DNA from: Negaprion brevirostris
Taxonomy: Eukaryota
DNA length: 64,000 nt
Reading direction: 5' to 3'
Assembly (NCBI GenBank): GCA_030324005.1
Contig: JARDVH010000042.1
Span: forward strand, 61,275,461-61,339,460
The position numbers and the translations under genes were made by a program. Positions within the stretch are counted from its first letter, which is position 1. Every line of letters begins with the position of its first letter. Below, in pieces: positions 20,560 to 60,370 of the stretch. The notes under the pieces are model-generated. The model did not search any database, was not told the origin of the DNA, and saw nothing but the letters and a program-made list of their open reading frames with translations.

Positions 20560-21600
20560 TTTGCTCTGCATTGGAGGAGTAATATCTCAATAAGTGTATC
20601 CGTTAGCATGCTATTGGAAGTCTTGTCAGCAGTCCTGGAACACTCCCCAACCTGTGTGGCTTTGGATAGATTCACAACCGATCTAGCAGTTCGAAGGCAC
20701 GAATCCATGAGGCACTGTGGGTTATCAGTAGCTGCATCATTGCATCCCAGTAAAATCTGGCCTGGCATATTCCAACTTTACCAACACCAGCAGATTTACT
20801 TGCTGCATTCAATCGTGAATGGTGGCGGAGAATTCAACAAAAAGAGGAGGAGAGCATATGAACATCTCATACCTGAACCCAGCATGAGTTTAGAAAACAA
20901 GGCTGAGGTTTTTGCAACCACTTTCATTCACAAGTGCCAAGTGAATGATCTGTCTTGGCCTCCTGCTCAGGTCTTTATGCTTACAGAAGCCTGTTTTTAG
21001 CTAATCTGATCACTTGCGATCACAGTCAAAGATGGCTAAGCAATCTGGATAGAGCAAAGACAATGGGCCCTACCAAGGTCCCAGCTGCTGTACTGAACAC
21101 TTGTGCTCCAGATCTTGTCATGCCTCCAGCCAAACTATTCCAGTGCAGCTGCAACACTGGCCTCTGCTGAATAAAGTGGACAATTACGTAGTTATGTCCT
21201 ATTCACAGAAAGAAAGACAAAACTAATCTGGCAAATTATCATGCATCAGTCTGCTCTCAGGCATGAGCTAAGAGATGGAAGGTGATGTCATCAACAGTGC
21301 TGTTAAACTGCACTTGGACAACAATAATGTACACAAGATAAAAGCAAGATATTGTAGATGCTGGAATCTGAAACAAAAACAGAAAATGCTGGATAGTCTC
21401 AGCAGGCCTGACAGCATCTGTGTGGAGAGAATAGAATCCATGTTTAGGGTCTGGAGGACCCTTTGTCTCACCATTGCTTTGTTTGGGTTCTCCCAGGACC
21501 ACTGGTTGCAGATCTCATTACAGCCTTCGTCCAGGTAAGTACAGGAAAGCTGAATTCCTAAAGTGAGGAGAGAGTGAGTATTCTTGACACCAATGCAGTT
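20560..21600 (+). mobile_element. Decayed CR1/L2-group LINE ORF2 fragment with a nested Penelope-type terminal repeat (21333-21470)
   Basis: KTMGPTKVPAAVLNTCAPDLVMPPAKLFQCS and a later FGFSQDH (QFGFRQGH-like) are RT N-terminal motifs. Confidence 0.75.
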
Positions 21601-41325: not shown

Positions 41326-41983
41326 CTACCATCTGAAAGTGGCCATAATCTGCTGAAGTGGAGTTGCTGGAAATGCTCTTCCTGTACAAATGTTGATAAA
41401 AATGAACAAATTCAATGAAGTGTTCTGTCATGTTATGACCCCAAAAATCCATGCTAGATTTGTGTTGTAAATCTGCTTGAATGATAGTAAGCTTGACTAG
41501 AACCTGATTGTTACGTTTGGATCGTTTGATTGCAATTTAATGTACCTCCTTTAGCCTCACTGTGGGAATCATTATGGGCTTTCTGCTAGGACAGGAGAAG
41601 GATGCCCTTTTCTTACTTGAAAGATTTAAAACTGCTCCCTTTGCACATTACTGTTGGGGGCATGGTGTATTTATTTCCGATAGGGCAGGGAAAATGTGAG
41701 TTGTCATACCCCAGATATTGGCATATTCCTTATGTGTGTGACTGATTTTCAACTTGTACCTCAGGGTCTAAAATTGAGTTTGCAAATTGGTCAGTCATTG
41801 TGGAAATAACTTTTATTTCTTGTGCCTCAAAAGTGAATTAATTGGGAAGATATTTCAAAATGTGGAGCTTCCATCAATATTGATATGCCTGTAATAGACG
41901 TGAAGATGCCGGCATTTGACTGGAATAGGCACAGTAAGAAGTCTCTCAACACCAGGTTAAAATCCAACAGGTTTATTTTGTAG

Positions 41984-42018
41984 CACGAGCTTTCGGAGTG
42001 CTGCCCCTTCATCAGGTC
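41984..42018 (-). ncRNA. Minimal type I hammerhead ribozyme-like motif (core intact)
   Basis: Minus strand reads GAC-CUGAUGA-A-GGGGC-AGC-ACUCC-GAAA-GC-UC-GUG. Confidence 0.6.
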
Positions 42019-42026
42019 AGTTGACT

Positions 42027-42061
42027 CATCTGATGAAGGGGCAGCGCTCTGAACGCTTGTG
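42027..42061 (+). ncRNA. Hammerhead-like motif, core mutated (GAAA to GAAC)
   Basis: Plus strand reads CAU-CUGAUGA-A-GGGGC-AGC-GCUCU-GAAC-GC-UU-GUG. Confidence 0.5.
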
Positions 42062-42879
42062 CTACCAAATAAACCTGTTGGCCTTTAACCTGGTGTTGTG
42101 AGACTTTTTACTGTAATAGATGTGTAAAGTAGTTTGGTTATTAACTTTTTGTGGTGATAAGCCTGAAACGGGGGGGAAAAAACTATTGGCCTGTGGAGGC
42201 ATGCATGTCATGAGCTGCCTCAAATGTCATCTGAGAACTGAGGGTTACTTGATGATTCAGACAAACTCCTGCTGTTGGAACTAGTCTGCTGCTGTCGTTT
42301 TAGAAGTAAATGCAACCCAATGAGCCAGTGACTGGAAAGATTCTAATTTCTTTCCTCCCCCACTGGCATTGATGCAGAAAGCTTTATAAATTTAGATGAT
42401 GAAATAAAATTTCAGGAGCTTAGAGTAGGGATGGGGACTCTTTTTTGACCAAATGGACTGAAATTTTCGGCATGTAAAATGTCAACACCAAAAAATCAAG
42501 TCCATCAGCTGAATATCAGTGAAATTTTCATGGCCATACCAGATCAGACAAAAGTAGAATCAGTCAAGCTTTGCAATAGAAAATGGAGAGAGTGAATTGA
42601 ACAGTTAATTTTTGCAGTGTTTCAGTTGCTTACCACTCCTCTTGAGGTAGCAGAGTTCTCTGTATCACAGTTTTCACCTCATATTACTCCTCCTCCACAA
42701 AGTGAAATGTGACCTCTGGCTTTTGGGAAACCATTTCTCTTCACGAGGTGTATCACAGAAAGCAAAAAAATTCAACCTCTAAGTCTTCCAGCATTCATCA
42801 ATCACTTTATATTAATCAATCCACCAGATGACTATAATCTTTTCTTGCTGCCTCACCCAAATTCTTCCTCCAGGAATTT

Positions 42880-43660: not shown

Positions 43661-44437
43661 TGGGTACTGTTTTCACCTCAGTAACTTGAAAACATCTGTA
43701 GACTTTTAACAAGGTTTTGTTTTCTATTCTTCACTTAGAATCTGCCTACTTTTATATCTGAATATGTAGGCTGTATTCTGTAATCCCATATCTTGTAATT
43801 CTGTGTATTACATGATGCACCTATCCTGATTCTACCCAAAAAGCTAGACACATTATAATTTATTGGTAGTTCAACAAAAGTGTGAAGAACGAGCAATTTG
43901 CACATACTGTACAAAATAGCAAATCCCATAGAAGCAGGAACAGGAGTCTCTCTTGTTTGGGTTTGTTGTAGGTTAATGAGTGATCATGTTTCACTTCAGT
44001 CTTTACATCAATCCTTAATTTGTGAAATAAATAAAGTTCAGCTTTTCACATGTATCGAAGCTGAAGATAAATGACAACCCTCACAGCTTGAGCTGTAATA
44101 AAAGCATTTGCAGAATGAAGTGTCCGCAATTTTGAGGGAAAGATGGATTAAACTGAGTCATAAACCTCTTTCTCAGTCCAATCTTTTNNNNNNNNNNATA
44201 TTAGGTTGAATCTGGGGCAGTGAGAAGGGAAAGTAAGGTCAGTGGTGCTGCATTAGTTGTTTTGTTTGAAGGAATTAATTGACCAGAACCAACCATACTG
44301 CATACAGGGCTGTTACTGTGATGTAGGATCAAGGCAGTTCTGTTGATACATGGCAAAGAGACTGTGTGCTGAGATGAACTGAGGAGGTTCTGAAGAAGAG
44401 CCCATTTTTGTGAAGACCATGCCTATGGAACTTGGTT

Positions 44438-44560
44438 AAAATCAAAATACTGTGGGTGTCAGAATCTGATACGAAAACGGAATGCTGGAAAATCTCAGCA
44501 GGTCTGACAGCATCTGTGGAGAGAGAATAGGGTCAATGTTTCTAGTCTGGATGACCCAGA
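44438..44560 (-). mobile_element. Penelope-type terminal repeat, solo
   Basis: aatgctggaaaatctcagcaggtctgacagcatctgtggagagagaa, as at 33775. Confidence 0.75.
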
Positions 44561-46524: not shown

Positions 46525-46616
46525 TTGTGAGCTGCCAAATAAACCTGTTGGACTTTAACTTAGTGTTGTGAGTCTTACTGTGCTTACCCCAGTCCAATGC
46601 CAGCATCTCCACATCA
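46525..46616 (+). mobile_element. Single-arm copy of the 41899-42114 element
   Basis: ccaaataaacctgttggactttaacttagtgttgtgagtcttactgtgcttaccccagtccaatgccagcatctccacatc, flanked by ctaatacacc and ctaatacatc. Confidence 0.8.
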
Positions 46617-49489
46617 CTAATACATCATAGCCAGGGTATCAGTTAAGAGCTTGACTTGCTCTTTGTACTAAACAAATGAGGTGGAGGGAGATGAATTGTT
46701 TTGGGGTAGGAAGGTGGTGTCTTGCATCCACTTGTGTGAGGAGGCTCATGTAGAACATAAGCACAAGCAGAGTGGAATTAATATTCTGATTGAATAAATT
46801 TGCCAATTTAACCTGCCAGAAAACATGACTGAGTATTCATTTAAACTGTAGTGAGATATGGGGACTCCCAAGTAATCTGCCCTAAGAGGCAGGTCTTTAA
46901 TTATAAATTCTAAGTGTGATGCCTTTCCTTTTTTTGGTAGTGATTTAAATTACTAGCAGGCAGCATTTCCCAGTGCTGAGGAAATGCAAGGAAAACTTTG
47001 TGTCACAGTTGCTTCCTTCATCTCCCTCCCATGCCCCCACCTCCCACCTCTATCTGGTCCCCCTGCCACCTCTCCCTCCTGATTGCTGCTTTTGTGTTCC
47101 CACCCCATCTACTCACTAGCTTTCATGCTTTCATTCCCTCTCAACTGACGGTCTATCCTCAATGTCCCAAGCTGCAGTCTTCTGTTGGCATTCCACACTG
47201 GCAACCAGCCAACTTTGCGGTGCTTGCACAACATGGAGTAAGCTTTGACAGGGCCCATCTTCCCATGATTTCTGGCTCATCTTGCCGCCGCACGTGTGTT
47301 AGTATTAATTACTGAGTTTTTTACTTGAATGCACACAAGCGAACACTAAACCAGAACCTAATTAGGCGTGACTGATGCACTCATGGTTGTGGTGCCATTT
47401 TCCACTCTGACTTAAACATCTTGTTTGTAAACATCTGTGGAACCTCACCAGCATTTGTCCATGCCTTCAGAAATGAACAATACCTGGTGAAATAGCTCCC
47501 TTTGAATCTCTGATTAGGTAAAGCCAAGATCAGCTCTGTCTATGATGCAGGGTAGTTGCATTGTATGTGAGGACTCACTGTTTGGAATAGCCCATAAGAA
47601 ATGGGCAATATTGAGATAAGCAAAACATCTTCAAAATAATGAAGAAAATTGAGAAAGCAATGCAAGTAACTTTTTTGTTATGCTGAAAGGTTCAAGTATC
47701 CGGAGTGAGAAGATGGCATTAGGAAGGATAGTCATATGAAACTTTTCTACAGGACCAGTGTTGTCTGTGAAATGCAGACAGACACTTTGCCCAGTTTGTA
47801 TATCTCAAACACTTCACAGGCACCCTTACTTACAAGATGAACAAAAGGACCAAACTCGGTTCGCAGTTCGACTAATTTTGTTAACAAGTTCAATAACATG
47901 AACACAGTATTCCCGAATTATCTAAACTCTTTTTACCTAAGACCCTGATACTACCCATGCCGATGAACTTGACCGAGCCACAGGTTCAATTCTGAGTATT
48001 TTCCATTTCAAGGTCCTCATCTGTGAAGCTGATTCTCGTACATCCTTTTCTGTTGTCTCTGGGTTGTCAACAAGTCTTGCCTATAGTCGTCTTCGCTGTG
48101 GGTCAAGCTGAGTCTNNNNNNNNNNNNNNNNNNNNNNNNNNNNNNNNNNNNNNNNNNNNNNNNNNNNNNNNNNNNNNNNNNNNNNNNNNNNNNNNNNNNN
48201 NNNNNNNNNNNNNNNNNNNNNNNNNNNNNNNNNNNNNNNNNNNNNNNNNNNNNNNNNNNNNNNNNNNNNNNNNNNNNNNNNNNNNNNNNNNNNNNNNNNN
48301 NNNNNNNNNNNNNNNNNNNNNNNNNNNNNNNNNNNNNNNNNNNNNNNNNNNNNNNNNNNNNNNNNNNAACATAGAAACTATATGCCAAATATGGTCACGG
48401 TCAAGTTCTTCCGATCTCCGTTCCTGGAGCATGCCGTGATCTATATGTTTTTCTCTTTGGCCTGTCCGAGTTCCCAATGATCCTTGTTGTAGGAGCTGTT
48501 TGCTCCAGCAGTTTGAATTCAGAGTATCTATTGGTCCATTAGGCCTATGAATCAGGCTTCCAAATAAGGGATGTACAATCTCATTGGGTGCTGTGACCTC
48601 CATCTGGCCACATAAGTAGCAAATATATTTGCAGGAAAGGTTAGGTCACTTGAAATAGGCTGTTATTCCCACTGCAGTCACTACCCAATGATAACTGCTT
48701 GAGTGCACCTTTCAACATTTTGAGAGAAGAATTCTGGCCCCGGCTATGATGTTTTATGTGAAAGCAGTTGAGACTGTCACATTCATTTGCAGTCTTTTGG
48801 ATGAGTTACTTAGGGGAATCGTGAGCAGCTATCTGAGCAAGGGTTGGAAAGTTGAAAAGTCAGAAGGGGAGAAAAATGTGAAGCGCAACAAAATAATTTT
48901 TATATCACAAGATGCTCAAGGCTTGGATCAAATATGCCCAAAGTGTCTGTATCTTCACCCCAACATCTGTAGGGGGCCTGAGTGTAGTAATTGTCAAAAC
49001 TTGATGGAGATGGATTTTGCTTACTGTGCTCCTAGTATTTATAAGAAGTCCAGTTAAGTTTTGAGTCAAATGGTAAACCCAGGAAGATTTTAGCAGGGTT
49101 TCAGTAATGTCAAAGAGAGATGGTTAAATTCTGAGTGACCAACTCCTGTTCCTGTGTTGGCATAGTTTGATGCAAATTAATTTTCTTAATAGCAAAGGAA
49201 AGTGCTCATTTACTTCCCTTTTTTAAATTATGTATTTTGAACCAAAAGCGGCATTCTTTTCTGTATAATTTATTTTTTCACATGATTGCATATTGTCGAT
49301 AATAATAGTGCTTGGAGAACTACCTGGTGTGTTGTGCTACATCTAATCCCATAGGAAGTATTATAACAACATCCTGGGAGCCCAAATATGATAACGTTTT
49401 GCCTTTGAATAATTTCCCAAATCCAGATAAATGGATGCTTACTTTGAGTCATTTCTTTTTGTTTGGTTATTCTTTTGTTTTGTTTTTCT

Positions 49490-55699: not shown

Positions 55700-55892
55700 G
55701 ATGAAAGCAAATTACTGCGGCTGCTGCAATGTGAAACTAAAAGAAAATGCTGGAGAATCTCAGCAGGTCTGGCAGCATCTGTAAGGAGAGAAAAGAGCTG
55801 ATGTTTTGAGTCCAGATGATCCTTTGTCAAAGCCACCTTACAGATGTTGCCTGACAGACTGAGATTTTCCAGCATTTTCTCTTTTCGTTTGA
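55700..55892. mobile_element. Inverted pair of Penelope-type terminal repeats (hairpin)
   Basis: gaaaatgctggagaatctcag...gcatctgtaagg paired with ccttacagatgttgcc...ctgagattttccagcattttc. Confidence 0.8.
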
Positions 55893-59049: not shown

Positions 59050-60370
59050 GCCAAAGACAAATGGGGAAGTAGCAGCTCAGGGGTTGGAGAAAAAGCAGAG
59101 GTAAAAAAGAGAGAAGAAATGGGTAAGATCCTGAAAGTTTCAGTGGAAAAGTTCATGTTTTTTAAATGCTGCAGCTCATGAGAAAAATGCTGAATTGATG
59201 GACTCCAGCGAATGTACCGCAGCTGAGGACGAGGACATTAATGGAAAATGTACACAGATTGCTGGAATAGCCAAAATTTCTGATGCTGTTTCCACTGAGG
59301 AAGGAATATATGATCCAGCAAATTGGTTTTATTTATTTGACAACAAGGTGACGTTCATTTTTGTGGCCTGTGGGAATAACCAGTAGCGGCTGTCTTTCAA
59401 TTGGCCCTTTTCGGAAGACTCATACACATGGAGAATGCCGAATGCAGTGTGAGCTGAAAGAAACCAGAAGAGAAAATGCTGTAAAACCTCAGCAGGTCTG
59501 GCAGCATCTATAAGGAGAGAAAAGAGCTGACACCGAGACTCCGAACATCAGCTCTTTTCTGTCCTTCAAGATGTTACCGGACCTGAGATTTTCCAGCATT
59601 TTTTCTTTTTGGTTTCAGGTTCCAGCACCCGTAGTAATTTGCTTTTATAGAGTTGAAAGAAATTGGCTGGTGTACTTGAAAAGAGCTGATGCGTCTTTTT
59701 GCTTCTGCTACAAATTGCACAGCTTAAAAACAGCACACAAATGAGTAAAGGGAAGCTATGGTGATGCGAAGCATCTCCATGACCGATTTATGATCTCAAC
59801 AATTATCTGATGAGCGTATTCAAATTGCAAAAAAAAGGATTCAAATGAAGTGAAGATTCTGTTCAATAAAGGTAATAGATGAGTACTGACAAAGAGAAAT
59901 GAACGCAAAAACCCACTGCAAACCATGTCGACATGTATTATACCAAGCTGAACATAACACAACATTTCTTGGAATAAATGGAAGGCTTTGTGAACTTTAC
60001 ATAGGCAACTTTCTGGGATTAATAGGATTGATTTAGAAGTCATCGCAATGATGCAAGAACATGTCTGACTCATCAAAAGCGCAGAACTCCATGACTGTTA
60101 TCTCACACCTTGGATTCAAAATGAGCTCATCTCTAATGGCATAGAAGGTGAAGAAAAAGATTAGTGAAAAGGTGGTTCTTTAGTGTACTCCTGGTCTGAG
60201 TCACCAAGTGCTGTATGTTGATGTGACTTCTGAAACAAGTGAAGGTACAGGAGAATTTTATTGCCAGACTTCCAATTTGAAGCCGCTGAGGATTGTTGGA
60301 TTCTCTTAAAACCATACTGGATGTGCTTAGCCTCCATATTACTGTTTGTAGGGGACAAGGATGTGACAAT
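59050..60370 (+). mobile_element. Decayed hAT-superfamily DNA transposase (ZMYM1/Tip100-like)
   Basis: In order: FCFCYKL (TTF zinc finger-like, 59698), GNFLGLIGLI (60004), YLTPWIQNELI (60099), WFFSVL (60173). Many stops. Ends not defined. Confidence 0.65.
59457..59648. mobile_element. Inverted pair of Penelope-type terminal repeats (hairpin), nested in the hAT relic
   Basis: gaaaccagaagagaaaatgctg...gaaaagagctga paired with tcagctcttttc...cagcattttttctttttggtttc. Confidence 0.8.

Follow-up and report, generated by a model that had tools for sequence, protein, structure and literature searches.

Hairpin at 41889–42124 and its genomic site

The window, by which we mean the whole stretch of 64,000 nucleotides that was analysed, contains at 41889–42124 an inverted repeat bounded by a short direct repeat. 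On either side of the hairpin, at ~33377 and ~51041, lie + strand exons of casein kinase 1 gamma type, which were recognized by short motifs. Pfam assigned no name to the two exon pieces of this gene, which we take to be CSNK1G3. The parts of the hairpin, described in terms of the Penelope-like element (PLE) identified below and of its target-site duplication (TSD), are as follows.

41889–41902: left TSD copy, 14 nt, the last 6 nt of which are also the tail end of the element
41897–41930, − strand: 34-nt PLE tail (model positions 282–316), which stops immediately before the ATG of the parent ORF
41931–42021, − strand: left arm, the pLTR end of a Neptune-type PLE, running from ACTGAC to CTTACTGT
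41984–42018, − strand: minimal type I hammerhead motif of the left arm (from sequence, alignment and pair counts)
42022–42023: head-to-head junction of 2 nt (TG), which matches the native upstream sequence of neither arm
42024–42114, + strand: right arm, a second copy of the pLTR end, without tail
42027–42061, + strand: decayed hammerhead motif of the right arm, with GAAA changed to GAAC
42111–42124: right TSD copy, 14 nt, the first 4 nt of which are also the arm end

The arms are 91 nt each, with a spacing of 2 nt and 88% complementarity. A preliminary description of this DNA had proposed a near-perfect hairpin of ~184 bp with a 2-nt loop; the hairpin and the spacing stand, but 12% of arm positions differ between the two arms and 'near-perfect' is too strong. 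The fold has a computed energy of −147 kcal/mol (z = −18), and none of 200 shuffled sequences was equally stable. The 14-nt direct repeat with one mismatch was found as described and reads CTGTAATAGA[C/T]GTG in its two copies. The extra ~30 nt noted on the left arm are present as well, but they number 34 and are themselves element sequence. The element spans 41897–42114 and is not simply bounded by the repeat: with its start at 41897, the TSD overlaps its ends by 6 nt on the left and 4 nt on the right.

In three other organisms, contigs lead into the element from the left flank as well as from the right, and in a fourth a contig does so from the right flank (four of the 24 listed runs were examined). 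No empty site was seen among these flank-into-element contigs from four of 24 runs, which do not bridge the element centre. The insertion is old and common to several organisms, and the hairpin in the window is a PLE stub, apparently dead, in an intron.

Identity of the arms

The genome search that the preliminary description had proposed, made with the window hairpin as query, returned 5,560 candidates; the 40 that were scored have 81–90% identity, and most of these begin at query position 9–16 and stop near 226. In the genome, exact matches number 6,075 for a 32-mer lying over the ribozyme and 17,323 for a 28-mer near the arm end, with none for the reversed control of either.

In one copy (L016) the right arm continues through the 34 nt that are present only on the left side in the window, and then into an ORF. 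Other ORF-bearing copies also run from arm through tail to ATG. The ORF start from L016 gave 1,507 candidates in the genome, with copies that continue into RT motifs. In L016 and L061–L066 the pLTR end is continuous with an ORF of the type that encodes a PLE RT with GIY-YIG at its C terminus. A protein search with the RT piece yielded 24 proteins, of which 15 carry an organism name, in each case that of a shark. Among them, the RT–GIY-YIG protein P0001 matches RVT_1 (E = 5e-9) and aligns along L062 and L066. A DKG motif, a GIY-YIG-type end and a C-x4-C-x2-C linker ahead of EN were read by eye in both P0001 and L062. Pfam called no GIY-YIG on P0001 or on the ORF pieces, and on eight decayed ORF pieces it gave weak RVT_1 matches in two and nothing else. 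The parent is presumably a Neptune element and not a Nematis, an assignment that we make from host range. L066 is an insertion of 3.3 kb that has, from left to right, a tailed arm in inverted orientation, an ORF and an arm without tail, with a TSD matching at 10 of 11 positions; its two ends are those of the window copy. A zinc-finger-like linker between RT and EN is a criterion for Neptune/Nematis (PMC8557442, in part), and the C-x4-C-x2-C of P0001 and L062 agrees with it.

Given the copies that run from arm through tail to ORF and the ends of L066, each arm is a pLTR end from a Neptune-type PLE, and the additional 34 nt are the known PLE tail, which has been described before (PMC8557442, PMC3846280 and PMC2377424, each in part). 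The Penelope origin proposed earlier is thus borne out, ORF-bearing copies included, and so is the reading of the arms as inverted pLTRs within a single TSD-bounded insertion.

The parent PLE is also represented by L066 (G000:C163), L063, L062 and L061, which are long but decayed and have inverted ends; the tail is at the right end in L063 and at the left end in L066. A second arm of the same PLE, single and tailed, lies on the + strand at 46525–46620 of the window; its start is ~2 nt ahead of the predicted cleavage site, and a direct repeat matching at 9 of 10 positions (CTAATACA[C/T]C) bounds it. Four loci (L074, L083, L084 and L129) represent a related subfamily that differs in its arm end and in the sequence upstream of the ribozyme. 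Another self-inverted repeat, of a different family, is present at 59460–59616 (~160 nt, 76% identity), with relatives at 55701–55890, 21337–21467, 33728–33848 and 44437–44557.

Hammerhead motifs

Both arms of the window hairpin show the layout stem I-CUGAUGA-A-stem II-GAAA-GCU-H-GUG, in agreement with the preliminary description, including the extra A after A9 and a palindromic AGCU stem III. The plus copy has GAAC at 42051–42054, also as described; the change sits at 42054, where the family has A in 84 of 86 arms. The core of the minus copy (CUGAUGA at 42015–42009, GAAA at 41994–41991, with a predicted cut between 41987 and 41986) is retained, but one of its three stem I pairs is lost (GAC versus CAC in the family), as is the inner pair of stem II.

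Arms that were not selected on the motif read, by majority, CAC-CUGAYGA-A-GGAGC-AGC-GCUCC-GAAA-GCU-H-GUG, so that the family consensus keeps CUGAYGA and GAAA. The features of a minimal type I hammerhead are present in the family: CUGANGA, GAAA, a UH site, the extra base after A9 and the palindromic stem III. Covariation, suggested earlier as a check, was examined in 44 motifs selected by a loose core pattern from related sequences. It is found for stem II, in which 20 cells are changed on both sides compared with 8.5 in shuffled sets (0 of 500 reaching the observed value), in four of five pairs; the three pairs of stem I are 86% paired and none is changed on both sides.

The Rfam check turned out negative, with no hammerhead family matching the window hairpin at E ≤ 10. 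Its best matches were miRNA hairpin models below the gathering score, which were rejected as those of a generic hairpin. Single-arm folds gave no stable hammerhead (z ~0), as is expected for a dimer-type motif. In the computed fold of the whole hairpin transcript the probability of stem II is ~1e-19, and the ribozyme is predicted not to fold within such a transcript. The hammerhead of the window arms is inherited from the pLTR of the parent PLE, and the window copy itself appears to be inert, its ribozymes decayed and sequestered in a 91-bp duplex.

At least four stem II variants mark subfamilies (GGAGC/GCUCC, GGAAC/GUUCC, GGGG/CCCC and a GGCC type), as seen at L189, L200, L209 and L245, at L159, L163, L167 and L197, and at L194, L203 and L238. 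In long-variant arms (e.g. L112 and L214) a GUGGC-UUUU-GCUAC element, noted by eye, could form a local hairpin and so conceal stem I's 3′ strand. The idea of a conserved 3′ splice site preceding stem I was also entertained but dropped, as the AG is not kept across subfamilies.

The hairpin population

Arms were sampled by short motif only, regardless of hairpin shape, by taking the first listed matches to the 32-mer and to the 28-mer (90 loci for each). After removal of one duplicate locus, 179 arms remained, all from one contig (C1). At least 88 of these have an adjacent inverted partner, a lower bound, a few short partners having been missed. The hairpins in the sample are ~9% from the family profile, their arm lengths vary widely, and 86 different junction signatures are found among 88 hairpins.

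Tail and TSD were analysed in those 82 hairpins that have no N at their ends; 70 of them could be classified for the tail. It lies on exactly one end in 63, on both ends in four and on neither in three (Fisher p = 1.3e-11), so that seven of 70 depart from a one-tail rule; among hairpins with a TSD of at least ten matches, the tail is on one end in 34 of 34. Across the hairpins it is found on either arm. A TSD of at least eight matches is present in 43 of the 82 hairpins, compared with 2.9% of 820 mismatched pairs. Three of 45 arms without a partner have one. The 34 TSDs with at least ten matches are 10–18 bp long (12–14 bp in 26 of them), and in every case one element end lies at model 265–288 and the other at 305–327. 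Their overlap with the element averages 1.3 nt, compared with 0.44 nt after shuffling. The 14-nt TSD in the window fits this family, with a larger overlap than usual.

The two arms of a hairpin resemble each other in subfamily. They share subfamily letters (60 of 66 versus 32 when shuffled; 58 of 66 versus 37), and a 7-nt indel is concordant in 77 of 82 (59 when shuffled). The five of 82 hairpins with a discordant indel were considered as evidence for two templates and set aside; three are explicable by tandem-repeat slippage and two lack a TSD.

Of 87 junctions, 19 show an overlap of at least 2 nt, 20 are near blunt, 16 have 2–4 extra bases and 32 have five or more, although some of this filler may be diverged native sequence. 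In the 63 hairpins in which 5′ reach was compared, the tail-less arm extends further in 21, the tailed arm in 14 and neither in 28. Neither arm, then, is merely a copy of the other.

Inner ends of the arms

Clean 5′ ends were available for 81 arms of the 28-mer sample, 65 of which end within model positions 160–252. The 11-nt bin 182–192, just before CUGAUGA, holds 27 of these 65 ends (p = 1.4e-9), whereas the bin around the cleavage site (215–225) holds two. The inner ends concentrate ~6 nt ahead of CUGAUGA, and partnerless arms end at the same hot spot. A smaller cluster at 226–241 may reflect subfamily differences that halt the alignment.

Exact double junctions counted over the whole genome number 31 at the 5′ edge of the ribozyme and six at the cut site, and a control position gave 14. 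The junction 15-mers match exactly at different rates (9/72, 29/125 and 49/136, respectively), and after correction for these rates the numbers become ~1,980, ~110 and ~110. A single base separates the arms in nine of the 31 exact 5′-edge junctions. With inner ends at the 5′ edge and rarely at the cut site, the templates would usually have retained the whole uncut ribozyme. Ribozyme cleavage as the source of the template end was accordingly rejected as the main route, few ends or double junctions being found there, although single copies starting near the cleavage site do exist (L228 and the arm at window 46525).

Long copies have a TA-rich box ~31 nt upstream of the A of CCACT; a looser form is seen in 16 of 22 parsed arms (a count without a control), and strict TATAWAWR at −31/−32 in five of the 22 (nine further arms unparsed, likewise without a control). 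Transcription would thus start just ahead of the hammerhead. A similar TATA/Inr pair is known from a rotifer pLTR (PMC3846280, in part). No RNA records carrying the element sequence were listed. At L073, L105 and L161 part of the ORF start adjoins the 5′ end of an arm in direct orientation, which suggests that the template was switched at the hot spot of inner ends.

Origin of the hairpins

The identity of the arm as a pLTR end, the TSD, the one-sided tail, the variable junctions and the clustering of inner ends just 5′ of the hammerhead are direct observations. In our view, the window hairpin is probably the shortest form of an ordinary Neptune-type PLE insertion, built on site by two target-primed reverse transcriptions and not copied as a unit. 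The endonuclease of the element would nick both target strands, 12–14 bp apart. One nicked 3′ end would prime reverse transcription of an uncleaved RNA at the tail end, and the other would prime ~36 nt further 5′, on this RNA or on a sister. The two cDNAs would run off at the RNA 5′ end, predicted to lie ~6 nt before CUGAUGA at CCACUCAC, near ACUCAC, and the free cDNA ends would then be end-joined head to head with variable filler. The reach of the arms and the classes of junction fit two separately primed cDNAs, made on one or sister RNAs and joined end to end.

There is a biochemical precedent in PAc, a Poseidon element of Anolis (Frangieh et al., 2024; PMC11167929), the protein of which nicks and extends both strands in vitro on an uncleaved RNA template, with two start sites bounding the tail, as in the model proposed here. 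Those start sites are not strand-specific, so the coordination of the two primings is something that we infer. The shark element differs from PAc in its Neptune-type linker, in a ribozyme that lies ~125 nt before the ATG and not over it, and in genomic ends with slight microhomology (the mean of 1.3 nt versus 0.44 nt shuffled given above). The mechanism as a whole is inferred from old copies with ends mapped to within a few bases, none of them an intermediate or an active element.

The alternative that fares best is self-priming, in which antisense RNA (PMC3846280, in part) or the first cDNA would fold back near the ribozyme and be copied into a hairpin, which the endonuclease would insert and trim. 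This is the published model for head-to-head PLE palindromes (PMC3846280, in part). The shared subfamily letters, with both arms nearly always of one subfamily, fit it equally well, and the 19 of 87 junctions that overlap by at least 2 nt (e.g. L048) are in its favour. However, fold-back of cDNA requires that the tail-less arm lie, at both its ends, within the span of the tailed one, which is violated in 21 of 63 hairpins; at least two extra bases are present at 48 of 87 junctions, another 20 being near blunt, and partnerless arms stop at the same hot spot. These objections apply to the cDNA version; priming by antisense RNA with later trimming is compatible with the same tests. Overall, we regard self-priming as unlikely.

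It is still less probable that long inverted-repeat PLE insertions later collapsed by deletion of the middle, leaving a short hairpin within the original TSD. Long copies with the same two ends do exist (L066 and L063) and the junction filler fits repair, but a deletion gives no reason why paired and partnerless arms alike should end a few bases at most from ACTCAC, and the outer ends of the window insertion are common to other organisms (the centres being unread).

The least probable origin is that of a non-autonomous hairpin element transcribed and mobilized as a unit and freed from host transcripts by its ribozyme, close to the MITE-like unit of the preliminary description: high copy number, the TSDs, the similar size of the best BLAST matches and the 1-nt loop in nine of 31 exact central junctions speak for it, but that uniform size arises because the hairpin itself was the query, arms selected by motif are of every length, 86 of 88 junctions differ, the tail occurs on either arm, a 3.3-kb ORF copy has the same ends, the ends are not at the cleavage site and stem II, at ~1e-19, would hardly form in the whole transcript. 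The single-base junctions could nevertheless come from a small unit-copied subfamily.

We therefore return to two target-primed reverse transcriptions as the preferred origin. A more specific version of it, which we put forward tentatively and hold somewhat short of probable, is that the stubs are fossil 'strong-stop' PLE products: a single uncleaved transcript, starting ~6 nt before the hammerhead core with a TATA-like box near −31, would have been copied twice by a dimeric enzyme, once per nicked strand, at the pair of sites flanking the tail. If true, this would explain together the tail, the inverted pLTR and why the template end is not determined by ribozyme cleavage.

Comparison with known systems

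The layout of inverted pLTR and tail has been published for PLEs (Arkhipova, 2013; Craig, 2021; Cervera, 2014; all in part), and the element in the window is itself ordinary. As far as the consulted parts of the following sources extend, insertions of EN+ PLEs (Pen2a_Av of Adineta vaga, PMC3846280; scheme in PMC8557442) have the same head-to-head inverted pLTR, and share with the hairpins described here a one-end tail of 30–40 nt abutting the ORF start, a TSD around the whole insert and a TATA/Inr-like pLTR motif. The corresponding repeat is 34–37 bp in Penelope of D. virilis (PMC2377424, in part) and the tail here is 34 nt. Unlike the EN+ PLE insertions in these published portions, the window hairpin has no ORF between its ends, the TSDs are 12–14 bp instead of 8–10 bp, and there are thousands of stubs.

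The motif shares with the metazoan PLE minimal hammerheads of PMC4209133 (in part) the CUGANGA core, the extra base before stem II, G10.1–C11.1, the palindromic 15.2–16.2 and the lack of a loop 3. Stems II and I are 5 and 3 bp here, compared with 7–8 and 4–5 bp in Schistosoma (same source, in part). Pairs of minimal hammerheads on opposite strands, 100–700 bp apart, were noted there as well, whereas the two in the window are ~15 nt apart.

Like non-LTR retrozymes (bioRxiv 10.64898/2026.07.22.740005, in part), the hairpins are short, non-coding, PLE-derived and hammerhead-bearing; unlike those described in that part of the source, they consist of two inverted arms only, not tandem head-to-tail units, and have no fixed unit. 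With MITEs they share the hairpin shape and a TSD. They differ in having no common internal structure or length, in ends that are distinguished by the tail, in a TSD of 10–18 bp, and in that PLE RT start sites, unequal in length, form the ends in place of terminal inverted repeats. A search of the literature that covered few subscription papers found no shark-specific description and no twin-priming model of PLE inversions.

Implications

With its layout already in print, the window copy matters chiefly as one of a population. The insertion mechanism of PLEs is still termed undefined in a review (PMC8557442, in part), and thousands of stubs, taken as a population, are a record of how PLEs insert; their value lies in insertion statistics. 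Annotators should be cautious, as such hairpins are prone to be miscalled as MITEs or miRNA precursors. The one-tail rule, the TSDs of 12–14 bp and the hot spot of ends before the ribozyme argue against self-priming as the main route, and from the same three features follow sharp predictions that can be put to the in vitro PLE system already available.
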